Part shown: positions 62-20,363 of the stretch, one piece after another
Layout of the letters: the number at the start of each line of letters is the position of its first letter
Position numbering within the stretch: the stretch's first letter is position 1
DNA from: a virus
Taxonomy: Duplodnaviria > Caudoviricetes
DNA: 43,094 nucleotides
IMG/VR virus record: IMGVR_UViG_3300050003_000007
Span: 1 to 43,094 of that record
Direction: 5' to 3' (one strand)
Translations under genes and position numbers: made by a program
The notes under the pieces: model-generated
Databases searched by the model: none
Seen by the model: the letters and a program-made list of their open reading frames with translations, nothing else
Told to the model about the DNA's origin: nothing

Positions 62-328
62 TCAGGCTACGACATCTTCCCTGTACTCAGGTGGAGCTGC
101 CACTTTTCTGTACATTCCATTGATGTTCTCGCGAATGATCTCATCTATCGCGGTCTCTATCGCATTCGATTGATCAACATCAGACAGACTGTCCGAGGAG
201 AGGGTCAGGCGGGCTAGGTACTGCGTTGTGTTGTAACCAGAACTCTCATCGAACTGTAACCATTCATCGTACTGCATGAATGGATCGTAGGGGTTGTCTA
301 TTGTTGTTAACATGTGCAGTGCCATCAC
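62..328 (-). CDS. Conserved phage hypothetical protein (MLTTxDNPYDPF type)
   Basis: 88-aa acidic ORF directly after the polymerase gene, with purine-rich RBS. Confidence 0.75.
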   Translation of the reverse strand: MMALHMLTTIDNPYDPFMQYDEWLQFDESSGYNTTQYLARLTLSSDSLSDVDQSNAIETAIDEIIRENINGMYRKVAAPPEYREDVVA

Positions 329-2979: not shown

Positions 2980-3536
2980 CCGTAAGCCTCCATCCTAAGC
3001 TCTTCGATGCGACGGTCAAATACCACAATCTTATCCATGATGTTCGTGACCGTAAGAGGATCGCCCTCGAAGATCTGAACCTCATCATTCTGGTAAATGC
3101 GAAATTCCATACCGATGTCGATTGGTTTGAATCCGTACTCGAGACAGAACAAAGCCCCATACACTTCTAGCTGAGTAACTTTGGTAGGGGTGACGCCTGT
3201 TTTGAGATCGTGAATTCGGAGGAAGTTTCTACGGAAGGCGATCGTATCTGTTGTACCATAGCAGTTGGCAGAATAGTACAACGTTTGCTCAGGCTTCATT
3301 CGAAATCCGATCGCGTCATTGACGTATTGATTCAACGTAGCGCTAGATTCCGGAAGTTTGACACCCAAAGTGATCATTCGCTGGGCGAGATCATGCAAAT
3401 CGCTACCACGCTTAGCGGCAAACGCCGTAGTGACTTTTGTGTCGAGCCTGTCTTCGTCGTAGTTCACCCAATGATAGCTGCTGGGACTCAGAAGAGCATG
3501 GCTGCCACTAAGATTCGAATGCTCTCTGAATCGCAT
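2976..3536 (-). CDS. PD-(D/E)xK nuclease (DUF2800/Cas4-like exonuclease type)
   Basis: HALLSPSS, G-x-x-x-H, GTTD...IHDLKTG, QLxVY motifs. Confidence 0.75.
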   Translation of the reverse strand: MRFREHSNLSGSHALLSPSSYHWVNYDEDRLDTKVTTAFAAKRGSDLHDLAQRMITLGVKLPESSATLNQYVNDAIGFRMKPEQTLYYSANCYGTTDTIAFRRNFLRIHDLKTGVTPTKVTQLEVYGALFCLEYGFKPIDIGMEFRIYQNDEVQIFEGDPLTVTNIMDKIVVFDRRIEELRMEAYG

Positions 3537-3825
3537 CTAGCACCTCGACTTCGTTCTCGGGACAAATGAAATCCGCGATACCGCCCATGTGTACGATGGT
3601 CGTTACATAGTACACCTGGTTTGGTTGAGTTTGCTTGAAGATGTCTTCCAGACTCTTCTTGACTTCCAGCAATGCGTAACGTCGACCATGCAGAACTGTC
3701 AGATCAGGAATTCCCTGTATGTATTGCTCGTCGTTTTTCAAGACGAGACACCCGGGAAAGCGAGCCTCGATTCGTTTGATCAGTCCAGCTTGGTAGTCAC
3801 GCTCCAGTTTACCCAAGTCGATCAC
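3508..3825 (-). CDS. VRR-NUC / Holliday junction resolvase-like nuclease
   Basis: E...GIPDL...LLEVK...PNQ pattern in a 105-aa protein. Confidence 0.75.
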   Translation of the reverse strand: MIDLGKLERDYQAGLIKRIEARFPGCLVLKNDEQYIQGIPDLTVLHGRRYALLEVKKSLEDIFKQTQPNQVYYVTTIVHMGGIADFICPENEVEVLDAIQRAFES

Positions 3826-3863: not shown

Positions 3864-3895
3864 CCCTTCTATTATAATCCATGTTTTTCCTGCGA
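3864..3895 (-). promoter_or_regulatory. Phage promoter-like motif copy 5 (TCGCAGGAAAAACATGGATTATAATAGAAGGG)
   Basis: Intergenic; matches four other copies; upstream of the nuclease-nuclease-RNAP operon. Confidence 0.7.
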
Positions 3896-3903
3896 GATAT
3901 TGT

Positions 3904-4395
3904 CTAGTCGGGATCAACCCATTCAAAACAGTGCATCACAGGGAAAACATAGGTTTTGTTGACGATGGAGAGAACAACATCGTTGTACAGGACACCGAAA
4001 GCGAAGACTACAGCCCACACGTCTTCGTACACTACTCGAGTATTGAGATTGCGCACAGCACTGGTCTCACCCAGATCTTTATAGAACTGGGACGTGTGCT
4101 GAATAGCAAACCATCGGGGTCGCCACACAAGATTGGATGCTCGACAGTTCGTCAAGTCGCCGTCCAAATGAATGGGGGTGTTGAACCCGGGACGCGGGAA
4201 CTCTAGGAACGTCTTACAAATGAGTAGAGACAAACCCCGCTGGACTTGTGTACGCCCCAACATCAGTTTCACAGCCGGTCGAGCGTCGCCGGTTCTTGAG
4301 ACGGCGAGAATTGTATTGGTGGAACTATTCCGTATCCTCCCTAGGTCGCTCGCTTCGTAGCCTGGGTACCCGGGTAAGGGCAGCCACTCCTCCAT
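3904..4395 (-). CDS. NUMOD4-HNH endonuclease-like protein
   Basis: N-terminal EEWLPLPGYPGYEASDLGRIRN (NUMOD4); IHLDGDLTNCRASNLVW (HNH_3-like). Confidence 0.8.
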   Translation of the reverse strand: MEEWLPLPGYPGYEASDLGRIRNSSTNTILAVSRTGDARPAVKLMLGRTQVQRGLSLLICKTFLEFPRPGFNTPIHLDGDLTNCRASNLVWRPRWFAIQHTSQFYKDLGETSAVRNLNTRVVYEDVWAVVFAFGVLYNDVVLSIVNKTYVFPVMHCFEWVDPD

Positions 4396-4404
4396 ATCGG
4401 CCTC

Positions 4405-4594
4405 CTAACTTTGCCAAGATTTTTTCGAAAAAAAACTTTTCTATTTCGTTTACCTATTGTCTATATAGACATTACCTAAAACTTTATTACAAGTTATTTT
4501 TGAGATTTTTCTAGGCAAGGATTTTTACCCTATAACTGCAGGTCAAACCCCGTTTTAAGATCAACATCTAATCTTGGCAAAATCTTGGCAAACT
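4405..4594. other. AT-rich intergenic region, candidate replication origin
   Basis: TTTGCCAAGATT (4410-4421) inverted against two AATCTTGGCAAA copies (4570-4581, 4581-4592); palindromes TTTTTTCGAAAAAA (4420-4433) and TGTCTATATAGACA (4458-4471). Confidence 0.6.
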
Positions 4595-5752
4595 CTAAAA
4601 GTCGGGCAATTCGGACTCATTGAAGCTTCTCTTCTCCACATAGGCTTGCCGGATGGCCTGATCGATCCATGCTTTGCTCATCGGGACGTAGTAAAACAGG
4701 TTGCCAAACGGCGTATTCAGTCGATCGATCCTACCGTACGACTGTTCCATGAGCTTATACGAGTAGTTCTGCGACCAGAAGAATGTCGCATTCGTCGTAA
4801 TACACTCCCAACCCTCAGCTCCGGCGGTGTACTGCACAAGATACAACCATCGCTCAGTATCGGGAATTTCGTCGTGTTTATGCCCATTCCATTCGCGAAC
4901 CGGAAGTCCCTCAATCGTCCTCAAGATCTGCAACTCGTAGTCGAAGTTGTAGAAAACTATGAGGCGGGGGTGTTTTTCTATCTTTCGTTTCAACGCTTCG
5001 AGCCGACTAGGGTCACTGTTGACGACCCTACGCATCAAGGAGAACAGCTCGGCAGCGTTGCGAATCGGTCGTTCCTCCCAAGGATTCCACCGATTCTTCA
5101 TCACCACACGCATCTTCTCTTCGTCGTGTTCAACCGGAATTGCGATGGTGTGTCGGGTCGTGAGTCGTTCGTACGGCATGTGGACCAGTATCTGCTGCCG
5201 TAACTTGAGAAGTTTCCCCTGCTCGAGGTAGTGATCTACCGCGGGGAATTTCGTATACGACTTATACACGACATGACGCGCCTTAAACTCCGTCCGGTTC
5301 TTGTAGTAACCATTCGCGATGAACACAGGGACGTAATCCAGCCACGAATCTCCGGGTGTCGCTGAAAGGACAATCCAAGCGTTTCCTCTGGCAATACGTA
5401 GAAATGCCTTGACCCATCCACCACTACCAACAAGACGTTGCTCATCAAAGATAAAGAAGGCGTCCCGGACATCTCCATACTTATGGATGTTGTTCCAGCT
5501 ATCGATTCGAAGGACTCCGGCAACCGTATCATAGGTATTCGTCCCCACCCCGAAGCGTGCGAATTCTCTTTGCCAGTCCAGACTGTCCCTCTTCTTGGCC
5601 GTCGTGATCACATAGACGTCCCGGTTGCTGTATTCCTGGACATAGTGAGCGGCCGCAACCATGCTCTTGCCAGAACCGACACCGCCCCACAGGATCTTCC
5701 CGGACTTCAAATTCGATAACGCGATCTTCTGGTGAGGCCTTAGCTCCGGCAA
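4595..5752 (-). CDS. SF2 DNA helicase
   Basis: LRPHQ Q-motif, GGVGSGKS, IFDE, LSATPG, QSYGRIDR; TTG start with AGGAG RBS. Confidence 0.88.
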   Translation of the reverse strand: MPELRPHQKIALSNLKSGKILWGGVGSGKSMVAAAHYVQEYSNRDVYVITTAKKRDSLDWQREFARFGVGTNTYDTVAGVLRIDSWNNIHKYGDVRDAFFIFDEQRLVGSGGWVKAFLRIARGNAWIVLSATPGDSWLDYVPVFIANGYYKNRTEFKARHVVYKSYTKFPAVDHYLEQGKLLKLRQQILVHMPYERLTTRHTIAIPVEHDEEKMRVVMKNRWNPWEERPIRNAAELFSLMRRVVNSDPSRLEALKRKIEKHPRLIVFYNFDYELQILRTIEGLPVREWNGHKHDEIPDTERWLYLVQYTAGAEGWECITTNATFFWSQNYSYKLMEQSYGRIDRLNTPFGNLFYYVPMSKAWIDQAIRQAYVEKRSFNESELPDF

Positions 5753-5869
5753 TTCGATCTCCTAGCGTGTCGCAAAACGGACACAATCCTTTGGTGACGA
5801 GATTGTTCCAGAACAGAACGATGTGGCATGCTCCGTTCGGACACAACAATGCGTACGCTCGATCTATTC

Positions 5870-6037
5870 TCACCGCAAGCGCTCCAATTCCCATTCTTTG
5901 TATTCCAGAACTTCACCCAGTTCATCCACGTACACCCAAATGGAACCGTCATCGGAGATTTCCTCGACCGTGCCGGTAGCTCCCGAAGCGATCATTCGAA
6001 CTCGTGGCTTATCAAAGAACGGACCTTGATTTGTCAC
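5870..6037 (-). CDS. 55-aa small beta-barrel (SH3/KOW-like) protein
   Basis: Hand translation MTNQGPFFDKPRVRMIASGATGTVEEISDDGSIWVYVDELGEVLEYKEWELERLR; GTGA overlap with the upstream ORF. Confidence 0.6.
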   Translation of the reverse strand: MTNQGPFFDKPRVRMIASGATGTVEEISDDGSIWVYVDELGEVLEYKEWELERLR

Positions 6038-6177
6038 GGCTTCTTCCCAATCTCGTTCGTAGTGGTGTGATCCGATCCCTCATCGCAGTTGCAGGTGGTC
6101 TTTGTCGTGGTGGTCACCGACCCCGTGCTCGTGTGGATCGTGATGATCACCGTGTGAACGTGCATTGCGCCTGCCAT
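6034..6177 (-). CDS. 47-aa Thr-rich micro-protein with HxH...CxC...H
   Basis: Hand translation MAGAMHVHTVIITIHTSTGSVTTTTKTTCNCDEGSDHTTTNEIGKKP; AAAGGAG RBS. Confidence 0.6.
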   Translation of the reverse strand: MAGAMHVHTVIITIHTSTGSVTTTTKTTCNCDEGSDHTTTNEIGKKP

Positions 6178-6207
6178 GTATCTCTCCTTTTCATAAAGAT
6201 AATCCAG

Positions 6208-6240
6208 GTAAAGCCAGGAGCCCCGTAGGACCCCTGGCTC
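6208..6240 (-). terminator. Hairpin with cUACGg tetraloop, terminator-like
   Basis: Minus strand GAGCCAGGGGTCC-TACG-GGGCTCCTGGCTTT; G-U pairs form only on the minus strand; short U tract. Confidence 0.6.
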
Positions 6241-6246
6241 ACCCGA

Positions 6247-6340
6247 CCAATCGGCGCATCACAGCCCTTGAGTGTTGTATCCATTTGCTTCGGCGGGGGC
6301 ACGAATTTCCTGTGACAAATGGCACTCGGTAACCGATTGG
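6247..6340 (-). ncRNA. Candidate structured RNA (nested stems with possible pseudoknot)
   Basis: Complementary pairs 6247-6254/6333-6340, 6270-6274/6323-6327, 6281-6287/6316-6322; crossing pair 6259-6264/6310-6315. Confidence 0.4.
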
Positions 6341-6429
6341 AGGTCTATCGCCGGCCTAGCCGGATAAATTCACCACTCACGGTTGAGGATGTTCCTCATA
6401 GGCTCACCTCCTCTCGCCGACGTGGAAGC

Positions 6430-6606
6430 TCAGTAGACGCGATGGTTGTTCGCGTCCCACTTTCGGACTTCACCGTTCGTGTCGCACTTCTTTCCTTCGC
6501 GACCTTCGGCGATGCAGTCCTCGCCGTACCCACCGGTGTCGCTGTCCCAGTTGATTTTGCCACAATACTGGCAGCATTTTTCCGTGAATACGACCGGCCC
6601 AGGCAT
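6430..6606 (-). CDS. 58-aa Cys-rich (putative Zn-binding) protein
   Basis: Hand translation MPGPVVFTEKCCQYCGKINWDSDTGGYGEDCIAEGREGKKCDTNGEVRKWDANNHRVY; GGAGG RBS. Confidence 0.65.
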   Translation of the reverse strand: MPGPVVFTEKCCQYCGKINWDSDTGGYGEDCIAEGREGKKCDTNGEVRKWDANNHRVY

Positions 6607-6617
6607 TGTTCCTCCAG

Positions 6618-6779
6618 TTACTCGGTGGGCATCAAGCCCGTCTGGAGATCTACCGTGACGAAGTACATCTTTTCCTCGAACGACAACGAGTTCCAGAACT
6701 GCTGGAATTCCTCCAGAGTCACCGACTTGTAGTCGGACTGGAAGTAACTGATCAACGTCACCATCGAGTTGTTCGCCAT
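6618..6779 (-). CDS. Small hypothetical protein
   Basis: MANNSMVTLISYF...VTLEEFQQFWNSLSFEEK; start chosen at the second Met of the track ORF. Confidence 0.65.
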   Translation of the reverse strand: MANNSMVTLISYFQSDYKSVTLEEFQQFWNSLSFEEKMYFVTVDLQTGLMPTE

Positions 6780-6814
6780 AAGTGATCTCGCTTTCTTGAG
6801 TATATGCATTGGGT

Positions 6815-6895
6815 GCAGGCCTAACCCCTTACCTGCGCGACGTCTCCCATATCTCGGAACCTGGGGGTCGTTCCGATACCTTGTTCCTTGACGTC
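6815..6895 (-). ncRNA. Candidate structured RNA with possible kissing loop
   Basis: Stems TCGGAAC/GTTCCGA, GACGTC/GACGTC, GCAGG/CCTGC; loops contain complementary ACCCC and GGGGT. Confidence 0.3.
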
Positions 6896-6908
6896 TTCCG
6901 GAGTTCTT

Positions 6909-7058
6909 TCAGCCGCCAGAACAGATCATCCTGTCCATCTCTTGTTTGGCGGGATTCCACACGTTGTAGACGTGCTCTTGCCCCCGCTTGTTTGCGGGAA
7001 CATACGTGCTACACGTGCTGAAGTTGGGGCATTCGAGCAAAGGCGGTTTCTTCGCCAT
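6909..7058 (-). CDS. 49-aa putative Zn-binding micro-protein
   Basis: Hand translation MAKKPPLLECPNFSTCSTYVPANKRGQEHVYNVWNPAKQEMDRMICSGG; TAATG coupling to the upstream stop. Confidence 0.6.
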   Translation of the reverse strand: MAKKPPLLECPNFSTCSTYVPANKRGQEHVYNVWNPAKQEMDRMICSGG

Positions 7059-7681
7059 TAGGCGTCCGTTCTGGGCAAGTTTCCTGAATTGATGGCGTAC
7101 TGATCGAGCTGCAGCTCTGCGGCGCCGAACACGTACTTCTGACCCGTGTTGTCCAGTTCGACCTCGTAACCCGCGGTGCCGTCCCCGCGGTCCACGTTCT
7201 CCACGACCACCTTGCCGTAATCACCCGTGTCTTCGATCTGAACGTGGTCGCCCACGCTGAAGGTCTTCTCGAAACTGCCGTCCGCATAGGTCATCTGAGC
7301 GACCGCGGGCATACCGCTGATGTCACGCAGAGCCCGACTGTGTGCACTGGAGTTCTCGAATTCGAAGGTGTGCTGGAACAGACCGTCCCGATAGACGTGG
7401 ATTTCTCCACGAAGAGGAACGATCCAGTCCATCAGCCGAACGAACACCTCACTCGGGTCGCGAACCTCGGCGCTGCCGTTCTCGAAACGATCGGCACTGA
7501 AGTAGAAGTACGGTCGCCCCTGCGCGTCGTAGAAGATCTCCTCCTCGAACTCGAGCGAGAGTTTGCCGATGTTCTGTGGCGTCACCTGGATGGCCTGGGT
7601 TCGGATGTTCTTGGGGTCGTATCGAACCCAGTGGGGGTTCAGGTGGGACAGGTTGAGAGATTCGGCGTTGAACGTCTTCAT
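7058..7681 (-). CDS. Hypothetical protein with C-terminal KOW/SH3-like domain
   Basis: Start MKTFNAE with GAAGGA RBS; FSVGDHVQIEDTGDYGKVV. Confidence 0.7.
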   Translation of the reverse strand: MKTFNAESLNLSHLNPHWVRYDPKNIRTQAIQVTPQNIGKLSLEFEEEIFYDAQGRPYFYFSADRFENGSAEVRDPSEVFVRLMDWIVPLRGEIHVYRDGLFQHTFEFENSSAHSRALRDISGMPAVAQMTYADGSFEKTFSVGDHVQIEDTGDYGKVVVENVDRGDGTAGYEVELDNTGQKYVFGAAELQLDQYAINSGNLPRTDA

Positions 7682-7818
7682 GTGTCCTTCTTTGTGAGTT
7701 GTGCTTTCATGCAGGGCCATCAGGGTGGCCATAGCAGTCCGCCGAGCCACGTGCTCAAGTGCGTACATACTCACCACCCCGATGGCCGCTCCGCGTGCGA
7801 GCCGCAGAAGAAGGTGCA

Positions 7819-8466
7819 CTACACCAGCTTCATGTAGGTCTGGGGGTCCTTCTCGGCGATCTCCAGTGCCTCGGGGGGCACGACCGCGAAAGTACCCTCC
7901 GGCTGCTGGTCGCTGACGACCACGTCGAGATCCTGCACACGCAGGTTCTCCGGGCTCGACACAGTCAGCTGCTCGGAACCCGGGACGACCTCGGTTTCCC
8001 AGGGGGTGAGCTCCTCGAACGAGGCCTCGAACTGGGCGGGCTTGTAGGACCGGAAGCTGCCCTTGAGCTCCACGACCCAGCAGCCCAGCGCCGCCACGAA
8101 GTCCTTGCCGCGGTTCTCGCCCTGGCCCTTGAGGCGGATGACCGGCAGGTCGGTGGTGGTCCCCATCATCTTCGTCGGCACCTGCTCGATGGTGCCCTTG
8201 CACCACTCGGCGACCTCCTCGATGTTCTGCAGGGTCACCTGGACCGCGGCGACGGGGAAGGGCCTGCGGGTGTACTGCTTGGTTTCCATCGTTCCTCTTC
8301 TCGGATTGAACTTCACGAGCTTGTAATTGTAAAACCAGCAGGTTTCATCATCCTCGATGAACTCTACCTGAGACATCATTTTTTCTTCGCTGACACGTTT
8401 GACGAAGCCGGTACAGCCAGCCCAGCCTCCAAGAGTAACTCTGACCCAGTCGCCGACTTCGATCAT
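7819..8466 (-). CDS. Hypothetical protein (N-terminal KOW-like module; probable second start at 8289)
   Basis: IEVGDWVRVTLGGWAGCTGFV; METKQYTRRPFPVAAVQVT preceded by its own RBS. Confidence 0.65.
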   Translation of the reverse strand: MIEVGDWVRVTLGGWAGCTGFVKRVSEEKMMSQVEFIEDDETCWFYNYKLVKFNPRRGTMETKQYTRRPFPVAAVQVTLQNIEEVAEWCKGTIEQVPTKMMGTTTDLPVIRLKGQGENRGKDFVAALGCWVVELKGSFRSYKPAQFEASFEELTPWETEVVPGSEQLTVSSPENLRVQDLDVVVSDQQPEGTFAVVPPEALEIAEKDPQTYMKLV

Positions 8467-8467
8467 T

Positions 8468-8695
8468 CTAGCTACCTTCTTTCGTACCCCTGTCAATTCG
8501 AAATGTTCCGTCGTGCCCACGAATCACCGTGTCGCCGACCTGTGCGCGTTTCACTTCGCCGCCCACAAGAACGTTGACGCCGGGGGTGGTCAAGTCATGC
8601 TCCAGCGCATTGTGCTGCATCACGGCTCGACCACCACACCATTCGGCGATCTCATCCGCATTGAGCGGCGTGAGCATCCTCGCCTCTTCGGACAT
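8468..8695 (-). CDS. Hypothetical protein, paralogue of the two downstream genes
   Basis: LTPLNADEIAEWCGG...AQVGDTVI; TGATG coupling. Confidence 0.7.
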   Translation of the reverse strand: MSEEARMLTPLNADEIAEWCGGRAVMQHNALEHDLTTPGVNVLVGGEVKRAQVGDTVIRGHDGTFRIDRGTKEGS

Positions 8696-9231
8696 CAGGT
8701 CAGCTCGTATTCGCCCTCGACGATCATGGGATCGTCAGATGACGCCTCGAGAGCACGCTGGTCCTTCTTGTTGTCCTCCACGAAGGCGGTCCACTTGGCC
8801 TGCAAGTAGTCCTCCTCGATCTTGACGTAGAGAGCCTGCAGATACGCCTTTGTGCCGGCTTTTCCATTGACGCTCCAGTCGTACGGATTCAGCGTGCAGT
8901 CGGCCGTCTCGATGTCCACCCAGTCGAGCATCTCCACCTCGTCCTCGGTGAGGTAGGTCATGCTCTTCGAAGTGACCATGCAGATCTTCGGTGGCCTGTT
9001 CTTGTACGAGACCGCCACCTGGATGTAAGGCTGTGGTTCGTCGCCCTCATCCCTGGGTCGGAGGTACTTGACATTCCAACCGTCCCGGAGCATTTTGTCC
9101 GCTTCTTCCGGGGACAGAATGATCGCGAAGTTCCGATCACCCTGACGGTTGTACATGTCCTCCTTGCCGGCGAAGTTGCGAAACGCGATTGTGATGTCTT
9201 CGAGCGTTATGTTGCGATCGTTCTTCGCCAT
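8695..9231 (-). CDS. Putative single-stranded DNA-binding protein
   Basis: FRNFAG...RNFAI...PY-x-W-x-VNGK-x-G-x-KAYL, acidic tail, located after the polymerase. Confidence 0.7.
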   Translation of the reverse strand: MAKNDRNITLEDITIAFRNFAGKEDMYNRQGDRNFAIILSPEEADKMLRDGWNVKYLRPRDEGDEPQPYIQVAVSYKNRPPKICMVTSKSMTYLTEDEVEMLDWVDIETADCTLNPYDWSVNGKAGTKAYLQALYVKIEEDYLQAKWTAFVEDNKKDQRALEASSDDPMIVEGEYELT

Positions 9232-9326
9232 CAGTCTTCCTCCCAGTCAACGTCACCTTCGACGACCAGGTCTTCGACTTCTTGTCGGAGTTCCTCTTCT
9301 TCCGAACTTGATCCTTGTTTGTCCAT
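9231..9326 (-). CDS. 31-aa highly acidic micro-protein
   Basis: MDKQGSSSEEEELRQEVEDLVVEGDVDWEED; TGATG overlaps at both ends. Confidence 0.55.
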   Translation of the reverse strand: MDKQGSSSEEEELRQEVEDLVVEGDVDWEED

Positions 9327-9439
9327 CAGTCGTCCGACTGTGTGATGGTGGTCTCGCGTCCCGCGTCGCCCTGCAGTGTGTTGATGTCCGCGATGAGATC
9401 GTGAACCTCGACCGCGTCGTTGTCACGTGGTTGACTCAC
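9326..9439 (-). CDS. 37-aa acidic micro-protein
   Basis: MSQPRDNDAVEVHDLIADINTLQGDAGRETTITQSDD; AAGGAGG RBS, GTG start. Confidence 0.55.
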   Translation of the reverse strand: MSQPRDNDAVEVHDLIADINTLQGDAGRETTITQSDD

Positions 9440-9683
9440 GGTCGTCCTCCTTGGGGTATTCGTCGTCGATCTCGGGGACGTACTTCACGCCGGCCACCTG
9501 CGCCAACGATGGCCCTTCTTTTGCCTCGGTCTCCACCGTCTCGAGAAGCGCGGTGAAGTCCTCGAACATCTTGATGGCGCTGACCAGGTTGACGTTCAGC
9601 GTCTCGTGGATCTTGACCATCTTCCGCAGTTCGTAGTAGATGCCCTCCAGGGCTTTTGCCTGCCTGTCCTCAGCTGCCGGCAT
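9423..9683 (-). CDS. Hypothetical helical protein
   Basis: 86-aa ORF, GAGGAG RBS, tiles with its neighbours. Confidence 0.7.
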   Translation of the reverse strand: MPAAEDRQAKALEGIYYELRKMVKIHETLNVNLVSAIKMFEDFTALLETVETEAKEGPSLAQVAGVKYVPEIDDEYPKEDDRESTT

Positions 9684-9870
9684 CGGGCTCCTCCTCCGTG
9701 ATCTTGGTGATGGTCCCCTTGACCTGGTTGCCGCCGAGCATCTTGATGATGCCGGCGTAGGTGACGGTCATCTCGATCACCGGGTTTCCGTTGGGGACCT
9801 GCTCGATCTTCGCGGTGCCGACCTCGACCTTGTTCGCTCCCTCGCCTACGATGAGACGAACCTGCTTCAT
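9670..9870 (-). CDS. Hypothetical protein
   Basis: 66-aa ORF, AAGGAG RBS. Confidence 0.7.
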   Translation of the reverse strand: MKQVRLIVGEGANKVEVGTAKIEQVPNGNPVIEMTVTYAGIIKMLGGNQVKGTITKITEEEPDAGS

Positions 9871-9873
9871 GTG

Positions 9874-10074
9874 TTACTCCTTGTCCAAGCTGAATGTCTC
9901 GGCGGATGTGAGACTGAATTGAGAGTAATCCACCGAGAACAACTCTTTGTTGGCTTCCGGATCCTCGATCAAGACGCGGATGATTTCGTAGTTTGTGGAT
10001 CCTTCTTCGAGCTTGATTTGCGCTTTACCGACGAGTTTTCCGTCGAAGCGCAGTTCCACCCATCGAGTTGTCAT
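9874..10074 (-). CDS. Hypothetical protein
   Basis: 66-aa ORF, ATGA overlap with the polymerase stop. Confidence 0.7.
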   Translation of the reverse strand: MTTRWVELRFDGKLVGKAQIKLEEGSTNYEIIRVLIEDPEANKELFSVDYSQFSLTSAETFSLDKE

Positions 10075-13808: not shown

Positions 13809-13817
13809 TAAGCCCCC

Positions 13818-14345
13818 TTATCCATCTTGTAGGAGATATTCGCTGAGCTGACGCCAAATTTCGACCTTGGTTTGGTCGTTGTCAGTGTATCTGAGGGGAA
13901 ACAATCCCCCATTACCGTTCGCATCGTACGTCCGCCATATAACTGCGGAGGTACGATCGTCAATATCTTGCTCGAGAAATCTACTTCTGTCGTTGTGACC
14001 CAGAAGCCCCAAGTTCCCGATGAGATGCCAGAACCAAAACACAGAATCTTGTTCGGTCTGGAATTCCAGTCTCCGAGAAAGACCGATCAACATCTCCAGG
14101 AACGAGCAACCAAGCGACGCCCAATGCTTGTCCACATCGACATCCACGGATGACGCCCATTCAAACCGAAGCTCCCGACCATCCTCAGCTCTGTTGTCGT
14201 CGTTCGGAACGAACCAAGCAAACTCGGTGCAGAACAGTTTCCTTAGTAAATTCCAGTACGTACGAGGGCCTTTCCGGGTCTTGACGTCCGCTACTTGACT
14301 GTACAGCCAGTAAAAGTATTGGTCGTCAAGAGTCCCGGTGGGCAC
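13818..14345 (-). CDS. Conserved phage hypothetical protein
   Basis: 175-aa ORF (DDNRAEDG, LEMLIGLS, GGLFP, EIWRQ) immediately upstream of the polymerase. Confidence 0.8.
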   Translation of the reverse strand: MPTGTLDDQYFYWLYSQVADVKTRKGPRTYWNLLRKLFCTEFAWFVPNDDNRAEDGRELRFEWASSVDVDVDKHWASLGCSFLEMLIGLSRRLEFQTEQDSVFWFWHLIGNLGLLGHNDRSRFLEQDIDDRTSAVIWRTYDANGNGGLFPLRYTDNDQTKVEIWRQLSEYLLQDG

Positions 14346-15046
14346 TATGGCCTCTGACGACCGCTCGGAAGTTCAGGGCCTTCCGGATCGATGCCGTTCA
14401 CTTCCTTCGCGTACGAGCTGGGGTTCAAGCAGACTTCGAACTCCATCTGCAGTCGCCCATTTCGAATGTGCAGAACGTTCGGATCGCTCGAATTCACGCC
14501 GAATTGTTGTAGGTTCTGCAACCCGACAGTCGCGTCGACATCCTCGATCAGATCATCCCGCTCGTCGGCCAGGGCGCCATCCTCCTTGTAGTACGTCAGG
14601 ACAGCCTGTACGTACTCGGAGTCGTTTGCCATGAACCAGTCTTGCGGGATGATGTGCGGCTTCTCGTTGAACAGGTTGTGTTCGTCCTGTGCAGGAGGCG
14701 GAGCGATTTCCGCCTCGACGGCCAGAGTCTCTTCGGGATCGTCGTCCGGGTCGTAATTGGTCTTGACGATCTTGTGGTACTCGACCCTGCCGTTGGCTCT
14801 TTCGGCAGGGCTTTCTTCGTCGGGCTCTTCCACCGGCGGTTCTCCTCGAATGAGGTCCGCAGCCGCCTCCTGCGGAGTGGAGTAGGGTTTCTTGACGTTG
14901 CGGTAGAAGATACGCATCTCTGCCGTCTCCCGCTCGAGACGCTCGTCGAATTGCGCAGCCAACCGCTTTTCTGCGACTTTGTAACCGATCCCGAATCCGA
15001 CCGCCAAACTACCGACAGCAGTCGCAATCAAAAGGGGCTTTGTCAT
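14345..15046 (-). CDS. Hypothetical protein with N-terminal membrane anchor
   Basis: LLIATAVGSLAVGFGIGY followed by coiled and acidic domains. Confidence 0.8.
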   Translation of the reverse strand: MTKPLLIATAVGSLAVGFGIGYKVAEKRLAAQFDERLERETAEMRIFYRNVKKPYSTPQEAAADLIRGEPPVEEPDEESPAERANGRVEYHKIVKTNYDPDDDPEETLAVEAEIAPPPAQDEHNLFNEKPHIIPQDWFMANDSEYVQAVLTYYKEDGALADERDDLIEDVDATVGLQNLQQFGVNSSDPNVLHIRNGRLQMEFEVCLNPSSYAKEVNGIDPEGPELPSGRQRP

Positions 15047-15056
15047 CCTTACCCCT

Positions 15057-15956
15057 TCAGATCTTCTCGAAGATCAACCCGTCGACGTTGAAGTCGAGGA
15101 GGATCGAGTACTCGCGACCGTTGACGAAGTCTCGCACCCGCGGGTTGCTGAGATCGTCGAAGATGCCGAAGTCGACGAAGCCGTCACCGTTGCCATCCAG
15201 CACCCAACCGACAACCTGGCCCTCCCTGGACCGCGGAAGACCCAGCGCGTCGTAGACCTCGTTGAGGAACAGATGACCGCGGGCCCTGAGCTTGTCGTTG
15301 GCGTAGGTCTGCTGACACTGCAAGAAGATCCGGTTGAGCTCCGGGTTCCGGTTCCAGTCGTTGCAGTACTCGTCGAAGAACCGCGCGTACTTGGACGGAC
15401 CTTCGCTGGAGTCCACGCGTGTGTGCTTGACGTTCTTCTTCTTACCGTCCTCGCCCTCGACCGTCTCGGTCACGATCTCGGTGCCGTACCGGAAGTCTCG
15501 GTCAGCGTCGGAACCCAGCTGTTCCACGACCCGCTGACGGTACTTCTCGAAGGCCTGGTCGACCGATGCGTAGGCCGCGGTCAGCGATGCGTTCCGACGG
15601 TTCAGGGTCACGTGCGAACCCGTCAGCAGTGCGACGGACAGCGCACCCAGACCCACGGCCGGCGCGTACAGCTTCGTGACGTTCAGCGCACTCCTGACCT
15701 TGATGACGGTGAGGTCACGCTTGTACTTGTTCTTGTTGTATTCCTCGTCGGTGGCCGCGGTCTCGCGGGCCAGGTGCTGCAGCTTCTCGCTCTCCTCGAG
15801 CGTGTCGCTCAGCTTGAGCGTGGCTCGGCACGCCAGGACGGTCGACGCGACTGCCGCAACGACGCCGGCACCGAACATGACCTGTGGGGACTGCTTCTGC
15901 AGGTGGAGGAGTGGGCGACCCAGCTTGTTGGTCACGGCCTCGGGGATGAGTTTCAT
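15057..15956 (-). CDS. DUF6353-like phage protein
   Basis: SPQVMFGAGVV hydrophobic N-terminus; LxAAY; FLNEVYDALG...GQVVGW; LDFNVDG. Confidence 0.7.
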   Translation of the reverse strand: MKLIPEAVTNKLGRPLLHLQKQSPQVMFGAGVVAAVASTVLACRATLKLSDTLEESEKLQHLARETAATDEEYNKNKYKRDLTVIKVRSALNVTKLYAPAVGLGALSVALLTGSHVTLNRRNASLTAAYASVDQAFEKYRQRVVEQLGSDADRDFRYGTEIVTETVEGEDGKKKNVKHTRVDSSEGPSKYARFFDEYCNDWNRNPELNRIFLQCQQTYANDKLRARGHLFLNEVYDALGLPRSREGQVVGWVLDGNGDGFVDFGIFDDLSNPRVRDFVNGREYSILLDFNVDGLIFEKI

Positions 15957-15965
15957 TCTTGTTCC

Positions 15966-16604
15966 TTACTGATCCAGTGAAACGGTTTTGGGCAACACGA
16001 GGATGTATCCGTCTCGCACACGACGAACTTCCGAACTCTGCAAGTCCGTCCATCCCCATTTGCGATCGGTATAACTCGATGACAGACCGACGAGACTGTA
16101 GAGGTCCGCCACGGTGACCGCATCATAGTCTCGCAGAAGGTCGTACATTCGATCGATGACCAGTTCTGCTTCCGGCCGAGTCGCCAGAAGAATGTCATCG
16201 ATGTCCTGCGTCCTGACAGACGCAGCCGGTCGTCGGTCTTCGACACCTTGGCGACCGATCGGGTTGTTACCCCGCACCGCGTAGCGCGTGTAGTTCGTCG
16301 GACCGGGTCCCGTGGGGTGTCGAGTTCCCGTACGACGACCTGGCCGAGCTTCACCGTAAATCAGTTTCTCGAAGCCCGAACTCACAGCCTCGACAAACAT
16401 CTCTTTGGCTTGGGGCATCAGGACGTCCGAGAATACGTAGCTGATGACCGTCTTGGTGTCTCCTCCGATGAACACTTCCCGGAATCGCCGACCGAGCGAT
16501 TTCTTCCTCGAAGTGACCTCACCGGTGACGACCTGCTCCACGACGCGTTCGGGTTCAGGCTTGGGTGGTTGGGAGTTCTTGGAATTGCTCGGGAACTCGG
16601 TCAT
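15966..16604 (-). CDS. Hypothetical protein
   Basis: 212 aa; PSNS N-terminus; VADLYSLVG...WGW C-terminal domain. Confidence 0.8.
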   Translation of the reverse strand: MTEFPSNSKNSQPPKPEPERVVEQVVTGEVTSRKKSLGRRFREVFIGGDTKTVISYVFSDVLMPQAKEMFVEAVSSGFEKLIYGEARPGRRTGTRHPTGPGPTNYTRYAVRGNNPIGRQGVEDRRPAASVRTQDIDDILLATRPEAELVIDRMYDLLRDYDAVTVADLYSLVGLSSSYTDRKWGWTDLQSSEVRRVRDGYILVLPKTVSLDQ

Positions 16605-16620
16605 GGTCCTCTTTCCTTGG

Positions 16621-16652
16621 AAAACCTAAACCCCTTGTCGGGGTTTTCGGTT
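16621..16652 (-). terminator. Intrinsic terminator (repeat family)
   Basis: AACCGAAAACCCC-GACAA-GGGGTTTAGGTTTT directly after the stop; near-identical to 19067-19097. Confidence 0.75.
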
Positions 16653-16909
16653 CAGTTCTCTTCGGTGGAGTTCTTTCGGTCCTTGATCTTCTGAAAGAAG
16701 ATAACCATTTCATCGATCTGATTGCTGGTGTACTGGCTTGTCAGTTCGCCAATGGCACCTCCGATCGCAGCGCTCGCTGCCGCGACGGTCACCTTATCGG
16801 TGATGGTCTCGGTTGCGACGTTGCTTTCGATGATACCTTTGACGACCTTAGCTGTTCCAACGCTCACAACGAGCGAAACGGCCTTCTTCAGGATTTCAAT
16901 CTTCTTCAT
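16652..16909 (-). CDS. Small hydrophobic protein in a promoter-terminator cassette
   Basis: Start MKKIEIL with GAAAGGA RBS; 85 aa. Confidence 0.75.
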   Translation of the reverse strand: MKKIEILKKAVSLVVSVGTAKVVKGIIESNVATETITDKVTVAAASAAIGGAIGELTSQYTSNQIDEMVIFFQKIKDRKNSTEEN

Positions 16910-16926
16910 GATCTTCCTTTCAGAGT

Positions 16927-16958
16927 GGGTCTCATTATAGGCCGTGTAATTCTTGCGA
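16927..16958 (-). promoter_or_regulatory. Phage promoter-like motif copy 4 (TCGCAAGAATTACACGGCCTATAATGAGACCC)
   Basis: Repeated intergenic motif just upstream of the RBS. Confidence 0.75.
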
Positions 16959-16959
16959 G

Positions 16960-17060
16960 TGAGGGGCACGTTTTGTCGTCAGTTGTCGTTTAAGATTCGC
17001 GTCTGGAATAGATAGGAGACCTCCGCCCGTGGCAAGCGGCTATCTCGCGAATGCCCCTCA
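16960..17060 (-). ncRNA. Candidate structured RNA (multi-stem)
   Basis: TGAGGGGCA/TGCCCCTCA, ATTCGCG/CGCGAAT, AGATAG/CTATCT and CCGCTT/GGGCGG nested stems fill the intergenic gap. Confidence 0.45.
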
Positions 17061-17063
17061 TCG

Positions 17064-17615
17064 TTACTGCGGGTTCCTGTTCGACCTCATCTGGAACGCC
17101 TCGACCAGTTCCGCCTGGGACATGTTGCGGAGCTCGACCTGCGTGGGCTCTCGACCCTCACTAACCCAGGCCGGTCGCTCGTCCTTCACGCCGGGGTCCT
17201 TGAAAGGGTCCGGTGCCGCACCGGTCTGCTTGGCGAGCTGAGCCTGCATTTCCTTTTGCATGCTTTCCGGGATGAGGTTTCGAACGAAGTCCGCGGAGGC
17301 CTCCGCGTTCGTCGACAACTCCATCAGGAGCTCGTCGTAGGCCGGAGAGTCGAACAGCATGCTCCGGGCCTCGTCGTCCTTAATGAAGCGCTGGCCGTCC
17401 TCGGATCGGACGCCGACGGACATCCGGATGAGCTCTCGCATCTCCTGCAGGATGGCCTTCCCGTCCTTGGCCTCTGTGATCCGCTTGATTCGGTCCATGA
17501 TGACAGTGCTGTCGGCGGCCATCTCGAGCAGCTCTGCCTTCGACATGTGGAAGTAGAACACCTGGGCGTTCTGTACTCCGTTGAAGTCCTTGTATTCGAT
17601 CGTCTTCGAAAACAT
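17064..17615 (-). CDS. Hypothetical protein, possibly a displaced tail assembly chaperone
   Basis: Start MFSKTIEYKDFNG...FYFHMSKAEL...SEDGQRFIK...SPAYDELLMEL; AAGGAG RBS. Confidence 0.7.
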   Translation of the reverse strand: MFSKTIEYKDFNGVQNAQVFYFHMSKAELLEMAADSTVIMDRIKRITEAKDGKAILQEMRELIRMSVGVRSEDGQRFIKDDEARSMLFDSPAYDELLMELSTNAEASADFVRNLIPESMQKEMQAQLAKQTGAAPDPFKDPGVKDERPAWVSEGREPTQVELRNMSQAELVEAFQMRSNRNPQ

Positions 17616-17623
17616 TGTTCTCC

Positions 17624-18391
17624 TTACTGACAGCGATCGTAGCCGCTGGTGGGCGCGGTTTTGAAAGACATGGCGATCGCCGGTCGTCCGTCTTTGAGTA
17701 TTGTGGCGGTGTATGTGACGTCGAGGAGCGCGTCCGTATTCCATCCCACGCCGTCCGAGAATGATGTCGGGGTCAGCCCGATCTCCTCGTAGAATTCGGA
17801 CAACGTGGCGAAGTAGAAGTTGTTGACCTTGTGGTTGATGTCATTGACGGCCTTACGGATCTTCTCCATCTCGTTCTTGAAGAAGCGTCCCGATAGATCG
17901 TCGTAAAACACGACTTCCGGCCCAGAAATGATGATGGTCTCTGCTCCACCATTTCTATCCATTCGGTCTGCGGCCAACTCGGCGCGCATTTTTTCTTCCT
18001 TCTGAGCCCCCAACGTCTTCACGACGCGGTCCTTATATTCCTCGGTCAACTGCTCCGAGAGTTTGAACGCCGCAGCGATCGCCGCAGTTCGACGCGTGCC
18101 GATGTGATTTGCGGCGATGATACAGGTGATTGTGGTGGCACCGACCGCCGCTGCCGGAACGAATTCCTTCCAGAAAAGTTGGATCTTTTCCTTGGGATCC
18201 ACCACAATAAAGTCTCCTTTGTTGTCGAGTTCCCGTTCCATGGCAGCGATTTTCAATCCAGTTGAATATGCGGCCTTACCGGTCAGGATGGCGGTCGTGA
18301 TCGTCCCCGCCACACCCAGACCCGTCAGGATCCCCGGGGAGTTCTGGGTAACGAACCGTTCGACGCTGTGGAACAGGGCCTTGACTGTCAT
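17624..18391 (-). CDS. DUF6353-like phage protein (paralogue of 15057-15956)
   Basis: NSPGILTGLGVAG; FYDDLSGRFF; TLSEFYEEIGL...GVGW. Confidence 0.75.
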   Translation of the reverse strand: MTVKALFHSVERFVTQNSPGILTGLGVAGTITTAILTGKAAYSTGLKIAAMERELDNKGDFIVVDPKEKIQLFWKEFVPAAAVGATTITCIIAANHIGTRRTAAIAAAFKLSEQLTEEYKDRVVKTLGAQKEEKMRAELAADRMDRNGGAETIIISGPEVVFYDDLSGRFFKNEMEKIRKAVNDINHKVNNFYFATLSEFYEEIGLTPTSFSDGVGWNTDALLDVTYTATILKDGRPAIAMSFKTAPTSGYDRCQ

Positions 18392-18569
18392 CCGTTTCTT
18401 CTTCCTCTTCGAATTCCGCGTATTCGAGCTGTAGCTTGATTCTTTCGAGTCGAAGTCGTTCGGCCGCTCTATCCGACATCCCTTCGACGATCTTGTACAG
18501 GATGGCGAATACCAGCAACATCCCGATCATGCACAGGATCAATCGCGCGATTTCGTATTCAGGTAGCAT
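18276..18569 (-). CDS. Small membrane protein
   Basis: TM helix ILCMIGMLLVFAILY then a coiled coil; 3' end overlaps the next gene by 116 nt, so the end is uncertain. Confidence 0.5.
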   Translation of the reverse strand: MLPEYEIARLILCMIGMLLVFAILYKIVEGMSDRAAERLRLERIKLQLEYAEFEEEEETDDSQGPVPQRRTVRYPELPGDPDGSGCGGDDHDRHPDR

Positions 18570-19035
18570 GATTCAGAACCACCATTCTTGTCATTCCCAT
18601 GGCCTTGAGTTCGAACGACATGACGCCGTCGCCGACGATGAATTCCTTGGATATCGCCTGCGACATGACCGCCTTGTCGACCTCGATCTTGTCGGACTTC
18701 ACAACCTCGCCGTCGTCCGCGGAGTCCACGAACGTACCCATCCAGTAGATCATCGAGACGCCTTCGTTCTCCATCAGGATCTCGATCGTGTTGTTTTGCA
18801 CGGTGGCAGTCATGACGGCGCCGTCGCCACTGTCAGCCGTCCATGTTCCGTTGAGACTTTGCAGGGGTATGTCCACCTGGGCGTTGGGGGTCTCGGTCTG
18901 ACCGGGATGATATTCGACCGTCGAAACACCCGGCGAGCTCAGCCACAGGGCCAGAACTGCGAAACCCCCGCCGGTCACGAGAGCAATCGCGCTGAAAAGA
19001 ATGACGAGGTTACGAACGGACTTGTTTTTGGACAT
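18559..19035 (-). CDS. Membrane-anchored exported beta-rich protein
   Basis: Basic N-terminus, TM helix, LNGTW beta domain; AAAGGAG RBS. Confidence 0.75.
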   Translation of the reverse strand: MSKNKSVRNLVILFSAIALVTGGGFAVLALWLSSPGVSTVEYHPGQTETPNAQVDIPLQSLNGTWTADSGDGAVMTATVQNNTIEILMENEGVSMIYWMGTFVDSADDGEVVKSDKIEVDKAVMSQAISKEFIVGDGVMSFELKAMGMTRMVVLNHAT

Positions 19036-19066
19036 TTCTTTCTCCTTTGAGGTTACGACCCTACGG

Positions 19067-19097
19067 AAAACCTAAACCCCTTGTCGGGGTGTTAGGT
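19067..19097 (-). terminator. Intrinsic terminator (repeat family)
   Basis: ACCTAACACCCC-GACAA-GGGGTTTAGGTTTT. Confidence 0.75.
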
Positions 19098-19099
19098 GT

Positions 19100-19321
19100 C
19101 TACTTGATCTTTGCCTTGGCGGCAACAACTGCAATTTCGCAGATGGTTTTCAGTACACGGTTGGCAGCGACCACACCGCCGATAACCGCGACGGCTTTGA
19201 TCGTGTTCTCCGTGATGATCTCAGCGATCTCAGCGGGGTCCACGGGCATAGTGTCGTAGTTGTCGTTGGGGAGGTCCTTGTCCTTCGTGAACTTTACCTG
19301 CATTGTGCGGTTCTTGAACAT
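19100..19321 (-). CDS. Small hydrophobic protein in a promoter-terminator cassette
   Basis: 73 aa, GAAAGGA RBS. Confidence 0.75.
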   Translation of the reverse strand: MFKNRTMQVKFTKDKDLPNDNYDTMPVDPAEIAEIITENTIKAVAVIGGVVAANRVLKTICEIAVVAAKAKIK

Positions 19322-19339
19322 GGCTTAAATCCTTTCGTA

Positions 19340-19371
19340 GGGTCTCATTATAAGCCATGTAATTCTTGCGA
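19340..19371 (-). promoter_or_regulatory. Phage promoter-like motif copy 3 (TCGCAAGAATTACATGGCTTATAATGAGACCC)
   Basis: Repeated intergenic motif. Confidence 0.75.
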
Positions 19372-19542
19372 TTACTTTTTCTTTTTGGTGGTCCCAACAA
19401 GAACCCATTCTTTCCCCGCACGAACGGGAAGTTTCTTTCGAGCATGCGCCGGATTCTTTGCTCTGATTATGCGAGAAGGTGCACTTTCATCAATAGTCCG
19501 TATGCCTTCCCAGTCGTACGCCTGCTTGAAAATGTAAAACAA
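19372..19542 (-). CDS. 56-aa basic protein
   Basis: TTG start after GGGGAG; FYIFKQAYDW...IIRAKNPAHARKKL; fills the gap between terminator and promoter. Confidence 0.55.
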   Translation of the reverse strand: MFYIFKQAYDWEGIRTIDESAPSRIIRAKNPAHARKKLPVRAGKEWVLVGTTKKKK

Positions 19543-19559
19543 ATCGTCTCCCCAAAACG

Positions 19560-19590
19560 AAAACCTAAAGCCCTTGGGGGGCTTTAGATG
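19560..19590 (-). terminator. Intrinsic terminator (repeat family)
   Basis: ATCTAAAGCCC-CCCAA-GGGCTTTAGGTTTT. Confidence 0.7.
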
Positions 19591-19592
19591 TG

Positions 19593-19754
19593 TCAGTTGG
19601 TTTCGACCTTCAGCGGGCTTTCCTTGGCGGCCTTCTTGATCTGGGATTCGGTGCGAATCGTCTTGAACGTCTTGTAGATCTCGACACCCGCGTGGGCGGT
19701 GGTGGCGACAGCAACAGTGACGTACAGGGCGAAGACGAGCTTGTCCTTGGTCAT
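19593..19754 (-). CDS. 53-aa single-TM protein in a promoter-terminator cassette
   Basis: Start MTKDKLVFALYVTVAVA with GAAAGGA RBS. Confidence 0.7.
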   Translation of the reverse strand: MTKDKLVFALYVTVAVATTAHAGVEIYKTFKTIRTESQIKKAAKESPLKVETN

Positions 19755-19778
19755 GAGGGTTCCTTTCAAAGTTACATG

Positions 19779-19810
19779 GGGTCTCATTATAGCGCTTGTA
19801 AAACTTGCGA
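19779..19810 (-). promoter_or_regulatory. Phage promoter-like motif copy 2 (TCGCAAGTTTTACAAGCGCTATAATGAGACCC)
   Basis: Repeated intergenic motif. Confidence 0.75.
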
Positions 19811-19839
19811 ATGAAAATATATAACGTGTAAAACACCCG

Positions 19840-19876
19840 AAAACCATATGACGTGTGGGGGATACACGTCATACGG
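19840..19876 (-). terminator. Intrinsic terminator
   Basis: CCGTATGACGTGT-loop-ACACGTCATATGG-TTTT. Confidence 0.75.
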
Positions 19877-19902
19877 CTTCGAGCTTCTTGCGGTTGGCTT
19901 GT

Positions 19903-20316
19903 TCAGAGGATCTTCTTCAGAAGCCCGAAGGTCTTCGTCGCGATCACGTGGGCTCGTTCGTGGTTCAGAATCATGAACATCCCAGCGAGGTGCGTTCCGA
20001 CATTCAACCAAGTCTCCAGGCTGATGGTGTCCTTGTTGCGCATTTCCATGAGCTTGGCACTTGCGGCGACCGCCTTGCTGTAGTCTTCGGTCTTGTTCCT
20101 CCGAAGCTGGTACAGTTTGGCGGCCGCGTTGGCCATTTTGTCGTACTCTTCGTCATACGCTGTCAAGTTTGTCATCAGCTCAAAGAGCTTTTTGATTTGA
20201 ATGTCGAGTTCGTGTTCTACCTCGTCTTTGATGTCCGTTCGATCCATCACCTGGAACGAGCGCATGATCTGCGAATCGAGTTCCTTCTCGACTTCGTCTT
20301 CTTCTCGCTTGAACAT
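19903..20316 (-). CDS. Hypothetical protein with internal duplications
   Basis: Start MFKREEDE with GAAAGGA RBS; C-terminal hydrophobic segment ending ILNHERAHVI. Confidence 0.75.
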   Translation of the reverse strand: MFKREEDEVEKELDSQIMRSFQVMDRTDIKDEVEHELDIQIKKLFELMTNLTAYDEEYDKMANAAAKLYQLRRNKTEDYSKAVAASAKLMEMRNKDTISLETWLNVGTHLAGMFMILNHERAHVIATKTFGLLKKIL

Positions 20317-20331
20317 GGCTAGTCCTTTCAG

Positions 20332-20363
20332 TGGTCTCATTACTAGCCATGTATTTCTTGCGA
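20332..20363 (-). promoter_or_regulatory. Phage promoter-like motif copy 1 (TCGCAAGAAATACATGGCTAGTAATGAGACCA)
   Basis: Begins immediately after the holin stop; marks the boundary between virion and non-virion genes. Confidence 0.7.

Follow-up and report, generated by a model that had tools for sequence, protein, structure and literature searches.

Five rigid repeats in a tailed-phage genome as probable promoters for the phage's own predicted two-barrel RNA polymerase

Which RNA polymerase reads the five repeats in the tailed-phage genome IMGVR_UViG_3300050003_000007 (Duplodnaviria; Caudoviricetes)? The whole stretch of 43,094 nucleotides (nt) that was analysed, here called the window, carries a rigid 27-base repeat in five copies, all on the minus strand, all intergenic and all in the sense orientation to the genes. 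Four of the copies contain TATAAT, and the gene for an 879-amino-acid (aa) protein, a predicted RNA polymerase, sits behind a copy of what would be its own promoter. We consider it probable, from sequence comparison and a structure model, that the repeats are promoters for this polymerase, that the enzyme is likely to be carried in the virion and that RNA starts right after the hexamer of the repeat.

Numbered from 1 to 27, the repeat consists of TCGCARG, WWWW, ACA, five variable bases, a hexamer at positions 20-25 and then purines. A preliminary description of the window had placed minus-strand copies at 20332..20363 (copy 1), 19779..19810 (copy 2), 19340..19371 (copy 3), 16927..16958 (copy 4) and 3864..3895 (copy 5), and when the sequence was re-read all five were found there. 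Their make-up was also as described: the hexamer is TATAAT in four copies and AGTAAT in copy 1, TCGCAR lies 13 nt from it, GAGACC follows four copies whereas the copy at 3895 has AGAAGG instead, and each of the five stands upstream of an open reading frame (ORF) with a ribosome-binding site. The pattern TCGCARG-WWWW-ACA-nG-n5-TAAT had five exact matches in the window and none further within three mismatches; shuffled windows gave a mean of 0.11 matches, and none of 100 shuffles reached five. A repeat finder returned the same five copies as its top family. With a weight matrix built on 366 sites of relatives the copies scored 27.5-43.5 and the next-best site on either strand only 10.1, so neither a sixth copy nor one for the late genes is present in the whole window, both strands and joined ends included.

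Judged by its conservation, the hexamer behaves unlike a sigma70 -10 box. In such a box A-11 is nearly indispensable. When both flanks of the repeat were fixed and the hexamer was left free (202 distinct sites, three of them probably due to chance), the equivalent position 21 was the weakest, conserved in 162 sites, with 187 for position 22 (the '-10 T') and 193 for position 25; the middle T was conserved in 93-94%. TANNNT was fitted by 147 of these sites and broken by 55. The TG of an extended -10 (-15/-14) occurred in four of the 202, and TTGACA, sought as a -35 element in the same sites, did no better than in a control window. A sigma70 scan of window positions 1-40000 listed none of the five copies; its counts of 6 and 7 promoters fall short of the 10.7 and 13.2 expected. 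For comparison, -10 elements of Streptomyces are TANNNT with a variable middle, according to the accessible part of PMC4895711. The 14 copies of FP_oengus keep to the register but have hexamers of the CTTTAT type, which fail TANNNT outright, and two Streptomyces phages have preferences of their own: RosaAsantewaa for TTAAAT (the A is absent in five of its seven copies) and Scap1 for TATAGT/TGTAGT.

Among 261 sites from 21 lineages the only invariant bases were C13 and the purines at 26-27. The central block occurs as ACA, GCA, TCA, ACC or TCT, and TCG or ACG is common in the copy before the VRR-Nuc gene. The invariant ACA of the preliminary description is therefore a property of the five copies in the window, only its C being constant elsewhere, and the tripartite site it proposed has to be softened, since C13 alone is invariant and the upstream CGC is gone in at least two lineages. 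We note separately that in all lineages the W4-ACA block (positions 9-14) often reads TTTACA, one base off a -35 hexamer, yet 5 nt from TATAAT.

The Shine-Dalgarno (SD) sequences bear indirectly on the position of the start. In 46 of 207 sites the best anti-SD match starts no later than position 30; some start codons in this set were picked wrongly, and the run of purines could in itself belong to the promoter. In several sites a full GAAAGGAGGT abuts the hexamer, with ATG at 42-43. A sigma-type start near position 32 would cut such SD sequences, and the start sites predicted below follow from where the SD sequences begin behind the hexamer.

The putative reader of the repeats, the 879-aa protein (340..2979, minus strand; phrog_4291), matched 250 phage records, the best being RosaAsantewaa (66%) together with cluster BI2; further matches came from phages of Arthrobacter, Gordonia, Rhodococcus, Microbacterium, Curtobacterium, Faecalibacterium and Lactococcus. 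PHROG 4291 spans the protein from end to end. An N-terminal YLAHYG tag is followed by Pfam helix-turn-helix (HTH) modules near residues 37-190, a core at about 221-721 with DFDGD at 501-505, and a further HTH at 845-878. A sequence-level search of solved structures with the protein gave no polymerase match. Its structure model (predicted local distance difference test, pLDDT, 79.6) gave 27 Foldseek hits at E<=0.001, with QDE-1, RDR2, P74-26 gp62, P23-45 gp64 and gp96 among the matches listed. In VIA comparisons over residues 221-721 the model matched QDE-1 with Z 15.2 (root-mean-square deviation, rmsd, 4.4; 370 aligned) and gp62 with Z 12.5 (rmsd 4.6; 360 aligned), a third Z being 14.7. The model thus predicts two double-psi barrels in one chain, and the sequence points the same way with a DxDxD loop, an upstream R-x-P and the D, R and K expected of a second barrel. 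Residues D501, D503, D505, R455, P457, R271 and K281 are present in all 150 distant homologs and D248 in 148. These homologs were drawn from different 50%-identity clusters of a family of 1183 such clusters (E<=1e-30), and the match to the eight Qde1 residues of PMC2919709 is one of pattern rather than of superposed structures. The 879-aa protein is a predicted RNA polymerase, and as a prediction it is already in print. One homolog, P0264, is 1789 aa long with the polymerase in its C-terminal part, which suggests a fusion protein.

The association between motif and polymerase extends through the clade. The exact motif occurs in about 1200 IMG/VR stretches (an estimate from 7 of 64 parts), and adding one spacer base reduces this to 16. 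The preliminary description had proposed co-occurrence of motif and polymerase gene in related phages as a check, and it was found: among 46 viral contigs chosen by the motif alone and examined out of 61 motif-bearing contigs of at least 40 kb, 43 encode the polymerase, including 25 of the 26 that are at least 90% complete. The three negative contigs look like truncated clade members, as DUF6353 is present in all three and terminase in two, with a layout that would be expected if the polymerase end had been cut off. Of 15 named phage records, 10 were matched by a strict pattern, every time on the coding strand; its reversed control matched none. With an iterated matrix, at least five copies were found in 17 of 20 sets of partial or whole sequences (the three misses being short loci) and in five of six further sets. 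The matrix missed G051 (two poor matches) and the short loci L349 and L264; eight reduced copies can be recognised by eye in G051, and contig G049:C12, the twin of L264, has 18. Sense-strand copies of the motif are present in phages that infect Streptomyces, Arthrobacter, Gordonia, Rhodococcus, Microbacterium, Curtobacterium, Lactococcus and Faecalibacterium. Of 167 loci, 137 have a copy scoring at least 12 immediately ahead of VRR-Nuc. When 401 genomes of one Firmicutes class were tested blind, the sole motif cluster (11 copies) was in G354, which proved to be the only polymerase carrier besides the centre genome G049 (399 genomes scored). The 400 bacterial genomes outside G354 gave about 73 motif matches compared with about 52 for reversed controls in a hand count, which is near background. 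In these data the motif keeps to genomes that encode the polymerase or look like truncated members of the clade. A pair of same-strand matches 533 bases apart was noticed at G292:C39:6441-6998; polymerase, terminase and DUF6353 were not found in G292 with the queries used, and the pair is either chance or a phage remnant.

The main genes of the window phage lie on one strand, with terminase, portal, protease-capsid fusion, tail and holin genes (43010-20364) followed by small genes, then by primase-polymerase, SSB and helicase genes, and finally by the operon of copy 5. Copies 1-4 each head a cassette of motif, small gene and hairpin, all on the minus strand. Copy 1 follows directly on the holin stop, and its predicted +1 is 20338, compared with about 20332 for a start of the sigma70 type; behind it come a 137-aa ORF (19903..20316, phrog_5818) and a strong terminator-like hairpin (19840..19880; z -7.4). 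Copy 2 (predicted +1 at 19785) precedes a 53-aa ORF (19593..19754) ended by a terminator-like hairpin of repeat family D8 (19563..19589; z -2.8). Behind copy 3 (predicted +1 at 19346) lie a 73-aa ORF (19100..19321, phrog_6618) and another D8 hairpin (19070..19097; z -3.0), and behind copy 4, the last before the replication genes (predicted +1 at 16933), an 85-aa ORF (16652..16909) and a third (16622..16653; z -2.8). Because the genes at 19035-17064 have no motif copy of their own, the hairpin at 19070..19097 is probably leaky, and the primase-polymerase, SSB and helicase genes past the one at 16622..16653 would need read-through as well. The three D8 hairpins are related to each other and end in TTTAGGTTTTC, and two of them precede genes without a motif copy; they may act as terminators that leak, as processing sites or as signals for a particular enzyme. 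Copy 5, of the AGAAGG class, has a predicted +1 at 3870, and its position is conserved across the clade. On the minus strand it heads a VRR-Nuc-type nuclease named from the annotation of relatives (3508..3816; phrog_93 endonuclease), a Cas4/RecB-like exonuclease (2976..3536, phrog_3953), the polymerase and a small gene for an 87-aa protein (62..325, phrog_4303) which follows the polymerase gene in the relatives examined. The latter protein is acidic, with an isoelectric point (pI) of 4.05, whereas the polymerase is basic (pI 9.66), and it is possibly a partner of the polymerase, acting as inhibitor, chaperone or DNA mimic.

A mechanism can be proposed for this arrangement. With its HTH modules the polymerase would contact the CGC and W4-C boxes; it would open the AT-rich hexamer and begin RNA at motif position 26, the purine directly behind the hexamer. 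Packaged in the head and injected with the genome, the enzyme would first fire copies 1-4, giving the small genes and, by read-through, the replication genes. Copy 5 would make new polymerase, and once the cos ends had joined, transcription from it would continue into the structural operon.

Packaging enters this scheme for a simple reason. The preliminary description had proposed positive autoregulation, for which the conserved copy before VRR-Nuc, Cas4 and polymerase genes still speaks, its position being the sole basis; autoregulation leaves the start of infection unexplained, and an enzyme delivered in the virion would supply the answer. The LAHYG tag at the N-terminus of the polymerase is shared in the window only with a basic DUF7211 protein of the head module (39048..39410, minus strand), which starts with it. 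In RosaAsantewaa and Vardy the tag is likewise shared with a head-module protein, and in the stretches of 1706 and oengus scanned a second tagged protein was not found. H12 is kept in 141 and G14 in 145 of the 150 polymerase homologs. Besides the tag, the GenBank entry for 1706 orf75, which is 39% identical to the polymerase, as 'structural protein' points to packaging. From these leads we think it likely that the polymerase is carried in the virus particle. As to the late genes, the 22.6-kb structural operon has no motif copy and, with positions 1-40000 scanned, no convincing sigma70 promoter of its own, there are only 84 bases ahead of its first gene, and the hairpin before cos lacks a U-tract. 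Read-through from copy 5 across sealed cos would be the simplest source of late RNA; a late promoter that has escaped recognition is a possible alternative. At its fullest, the proposal is that one 96-kDa enzyme, loaded into the capsid by its N-terminal tag, carries out the entire phage programme with no need of sigma or host polymerase, starting at the base next to a TATAAT look-alike, using the central copies for early and replication genes and transcribing itself and all virion genes from one promoter across sealed cos. We offer this extended form tentatively, as a serious possibility.

Several observations count against transcription of the repeats by the phage enzyme. TANNNT is fitted by 208 of the 261 copies, a number biased upwards by a matrix seeded mostly with TATAAT sites, and in some whole genomes every copy fits (Pepy6 15/15, P162 12/12, 1706 12/12), as a host -10 box would give. 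Before the polymerase operon the proportion is 50 of 55 non-oengus copies, compared with 147 of 202 cassette copies, so that host reading of that particular copy is possible. A 5' stem from position 26 is clear in the oengus group only, and the pairing profile is confounded by upstream bases. Covariation between protein and DNA is weak: all 18 lineages with CGC have R109 in the second HTH and three of the four without CGC have changed it, but it is one of 10 such columns out of 230 and CGC was lost only about twice. A role for R109 in contacting CGC is therefore suggestive only, and any assignment of a given HTH to a given box is speculative. The GenBank label 'structural protein' for 1706 orf75 (39% identical), echoed for Pepy6 gp106, has an unconfirmed basis. 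The sites are phylogenetically non-independent and gene conversion could homogenise copies, a point on which it bears that the n5 spacers mostly differ among copies within genomes. Every core gene of the clade is as closely associated with the motif as the polymerase is. The claim that the repeats are non-sigma70 sites read by the 879-aa polymerase gains from co-occurrence, from the un-sigma-like hexamer and from the predicted fold, although the co-occurrence would hold equally for other core genes. Finally, the only tested enzyme of the YonO type transcribes late genes, and its promoter is left undefined in the accessible part of PMC5467207.

How do other explanations fare with these data? 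Host polymerase with its principal sigma factor might read TATAAT as a -10 box while a phage protein, either the multi-HTH protein or the product of another core gene, occupies the CGC/ACA boxes where a -35 element would otherwise serve, in the manner of MotA/AsiA of T4. The abundance of TANNNT would fit, as would the rigid spacing, which suits a protein contact, the upstream box 13 nt from TATAAT, which resembles the geometry of the MotA box, and the sigma-region-4-like HTH matches within the 879-aa polymerase. Appropriation of the T4 type goes with an intact -10 box, and this is seen in most lineages but not in oengus, with its CTTTAT throughout; the weakness of the '-11 A' and the SD sequences abutting the hexamer are equally hard to accommodate, and a pure activator would have no need of invariant catalytic residues. 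Among the 48 window ORFs scanned no other DNA-binding regulator was named and no MotA/AsiA-type family was found, several core genes being without assigned function. We regard this explanation as unlikely. Another has host holoenzyme weakly reading the TATAAT copies first, chiefly the one before the polymerase operon, until newly made phage polymerase takes over, with no enzyme in the virion. It overlaps with transcription by the phage polymerase as we propose it and differs only in how infection starts. The high proportion of TANNNT before VRR-Nuc speaks for it, together with the persistence of TATAAT as the clade consensus though many variants are tolerated, and P23-45 does mix host and phage enzymes (PMC10770324, accessible part). 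However, at the copy in question the oengus group has TTTTAT, RosaAsantewaa TTAAAT and Vardy TATAAC, and both the tag and the (unconfirmed) virion label point to packaging, which leaves us with little confidence in such a start.

It could also be argued that the repeats are plain strong host promoters without a -35 element, the rest of the sequence being kept by cassette recombination, and that the polymerase acts elsewhere, for instance on late genes like YonO. This is the published reading for Vardy (PMC9671010) and Conley (PMC10868162), and the Mossy announcement ties the repeat to rearrangements (PMC11008172). All eight plus-strand TATAAT sequences in 50 kb of Vardy lie inside the motif, and the structural operon is indeed without a copy. 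What makes this reading very improbable in our judgement is the same register with an invariant C13 from Streptomyces to Faecalibacterium phages, the near-background frequency of the motif in 400 bacterial genomes, the differing spacers among copies and the existence of non-TANNNT lineages. Promoters for the phage's own polymerase remain our preferred explanation.

Some further features of the window and of related sequences deserve mention. Close relatives join both ends via a 9-base cos overhang that is absent from the window, which therefore represents a complete genome minus the overhang. Positions 1-45 and the end at 43094 form a clade-conserved G-rich/C-rich inverted repeat, about 26 nt from the cos nick and with TCGCAA in its loop, which is a candidate terminase-binding site. 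This TCGCAA is similar to the upstream box of the motif, but we rejected it as a promoter, as it lies in an inverted-repeat loop, has no AT-rich hexamer and is not mirrored in oengus. The AT-rich gap between helicase and HNH genes (4411-4609) contains direct and inverted repeats of the TTGCCAAGAT type and is likely to be the replication origin; in oengus and P162 a comparable location holds other repeats. Several small unannotated ORFs and GC-rich hairpins lie at 5900-7100, in the interval from the SSB region to the helicase gene. The first 290 residues of the protease-capsid fusion (33492-35498) contain eight hydrophobic-x-His-(A/S/G) motifs that look like the N-terminal tag of the polymerase and could possibly be His-specific maturation cuts. 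In the FP_oengus prophage the motif copy that heads the polymerase operon is immediately preceded (L083:27150-27600) by an unannotated ORF, which has a terminator and a sigma70-like promoter. Contigs C5, C6 and C7 of G048 (L560-L566, L264), a 1.2-Mb assembled genome, bin together three different clade phages with motif variants with and without CGC, and are probably mis-binned.

The window phage belongs to the BI/AM/AU/DJ/1706/oengus supergroup as defined by Koert et al. (bioRxiv 10.1101/842583, accessible part), and both halves of our proposal have precedents there. A 43-50 bp intergenic motif has been described in the cluster DJ Gordonia phages Vardy, Conley and Mossy and was read as a sigma70 -10 box or a translational start signal (PMC9671010; PMC10868162 and PMC11008172, accessible parts). 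A scan of Vardy (ON970622) showed it to be the same element, in the same register before small central genes; it was reported for DJ only and not linked there to a polymerase. The 1706 protein is listed as one of five YonO-like families in section 8 of PMC2919709, in the part available. Orf75 of 1706, the 'putative RNA polymerase' of FP_oengus and the 'HTH DNA-binding domain protein' of SEA-PHAGES (phrog_4291) belong to the same family as the 879-aa protein, with which they share DxDGD, HTHs at both ends and the status of a supergroup signature gene. In the accessible part of Koert et al. the word 'promoter' is absent and no activity or promoter is given for this family. A literature search that did not reach subscription papers and supplements found no paper linking motif and polymerase, and the accessible parts of PMC5513430, PMC7302621, PMC13313380, PMC5883640 and PMC13432834 contain nothing on the motif. 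With the motif (as sigma70, in cluster DJ) and the polymerase (as a prediction) each already published, what would be new is their link.

The motif bears on the question of how cellular RNA polymerase's small single-chain relatives, which lack sigma, locate their promoters, and it supplies this family with a precise substrate and a predicted start base. Natural specificity variants (TATAAT, TATAGT, TTAAAT and CTTTAT, with or without CGC) are at hand in the cultured phages Scap1, RosaAsantewaa, Vardy, Circum and 1706. If true, the link would correct the published sigma70 reading, would explain how a lineage with little dependence on host transcription moves between Actinobacteria and Firmicutes, and would provide a compact orthogonal polymerase-promoter pair for Gram-positive hosts.

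Among known systems, promoters of T7 consist of a binding region, an AT-rich block that is melted and a purine start at rigid spacing, all of which the motif would share; the T7 polymerase, by contrast, is a right-hand enzyme unrelated to two-barrel folds. Middle promoters of T4 have an upstream box about 13 nt from TATAAT, as here, but need host sigma and an intact -10 box. YonO of the Bacillus prophage SPbeta is a single-chain DNA-dependent polymerase of about 100 kDa and of the same broad class; it transcribes one late operon, as described in PMC5467207 (accessible part), whereas in the window the copies stand ahead of the polymerase operon as well as of small central and replication genes. 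Closest are the enzymes of P23-45 and P74-26. The virion polymerase of P23-45 co-occurs with an AT-rich motif and is the experimental precedent for a two-barrel enzyme in a virion (PMC10770324, accessible part). The window phage differs in having one free-standing enzyme of about 96 kDa per genome, with fused HTHs, a short N-terminal tag rather than a tape-measure fusion, no sequence-level match to solved structures and a motif that mimics TATAAT. It would share with these phages a single-chain two-barrel polymerase, a conserved motif that co-occurs with the enzyme and, probably, delivery in the virion.

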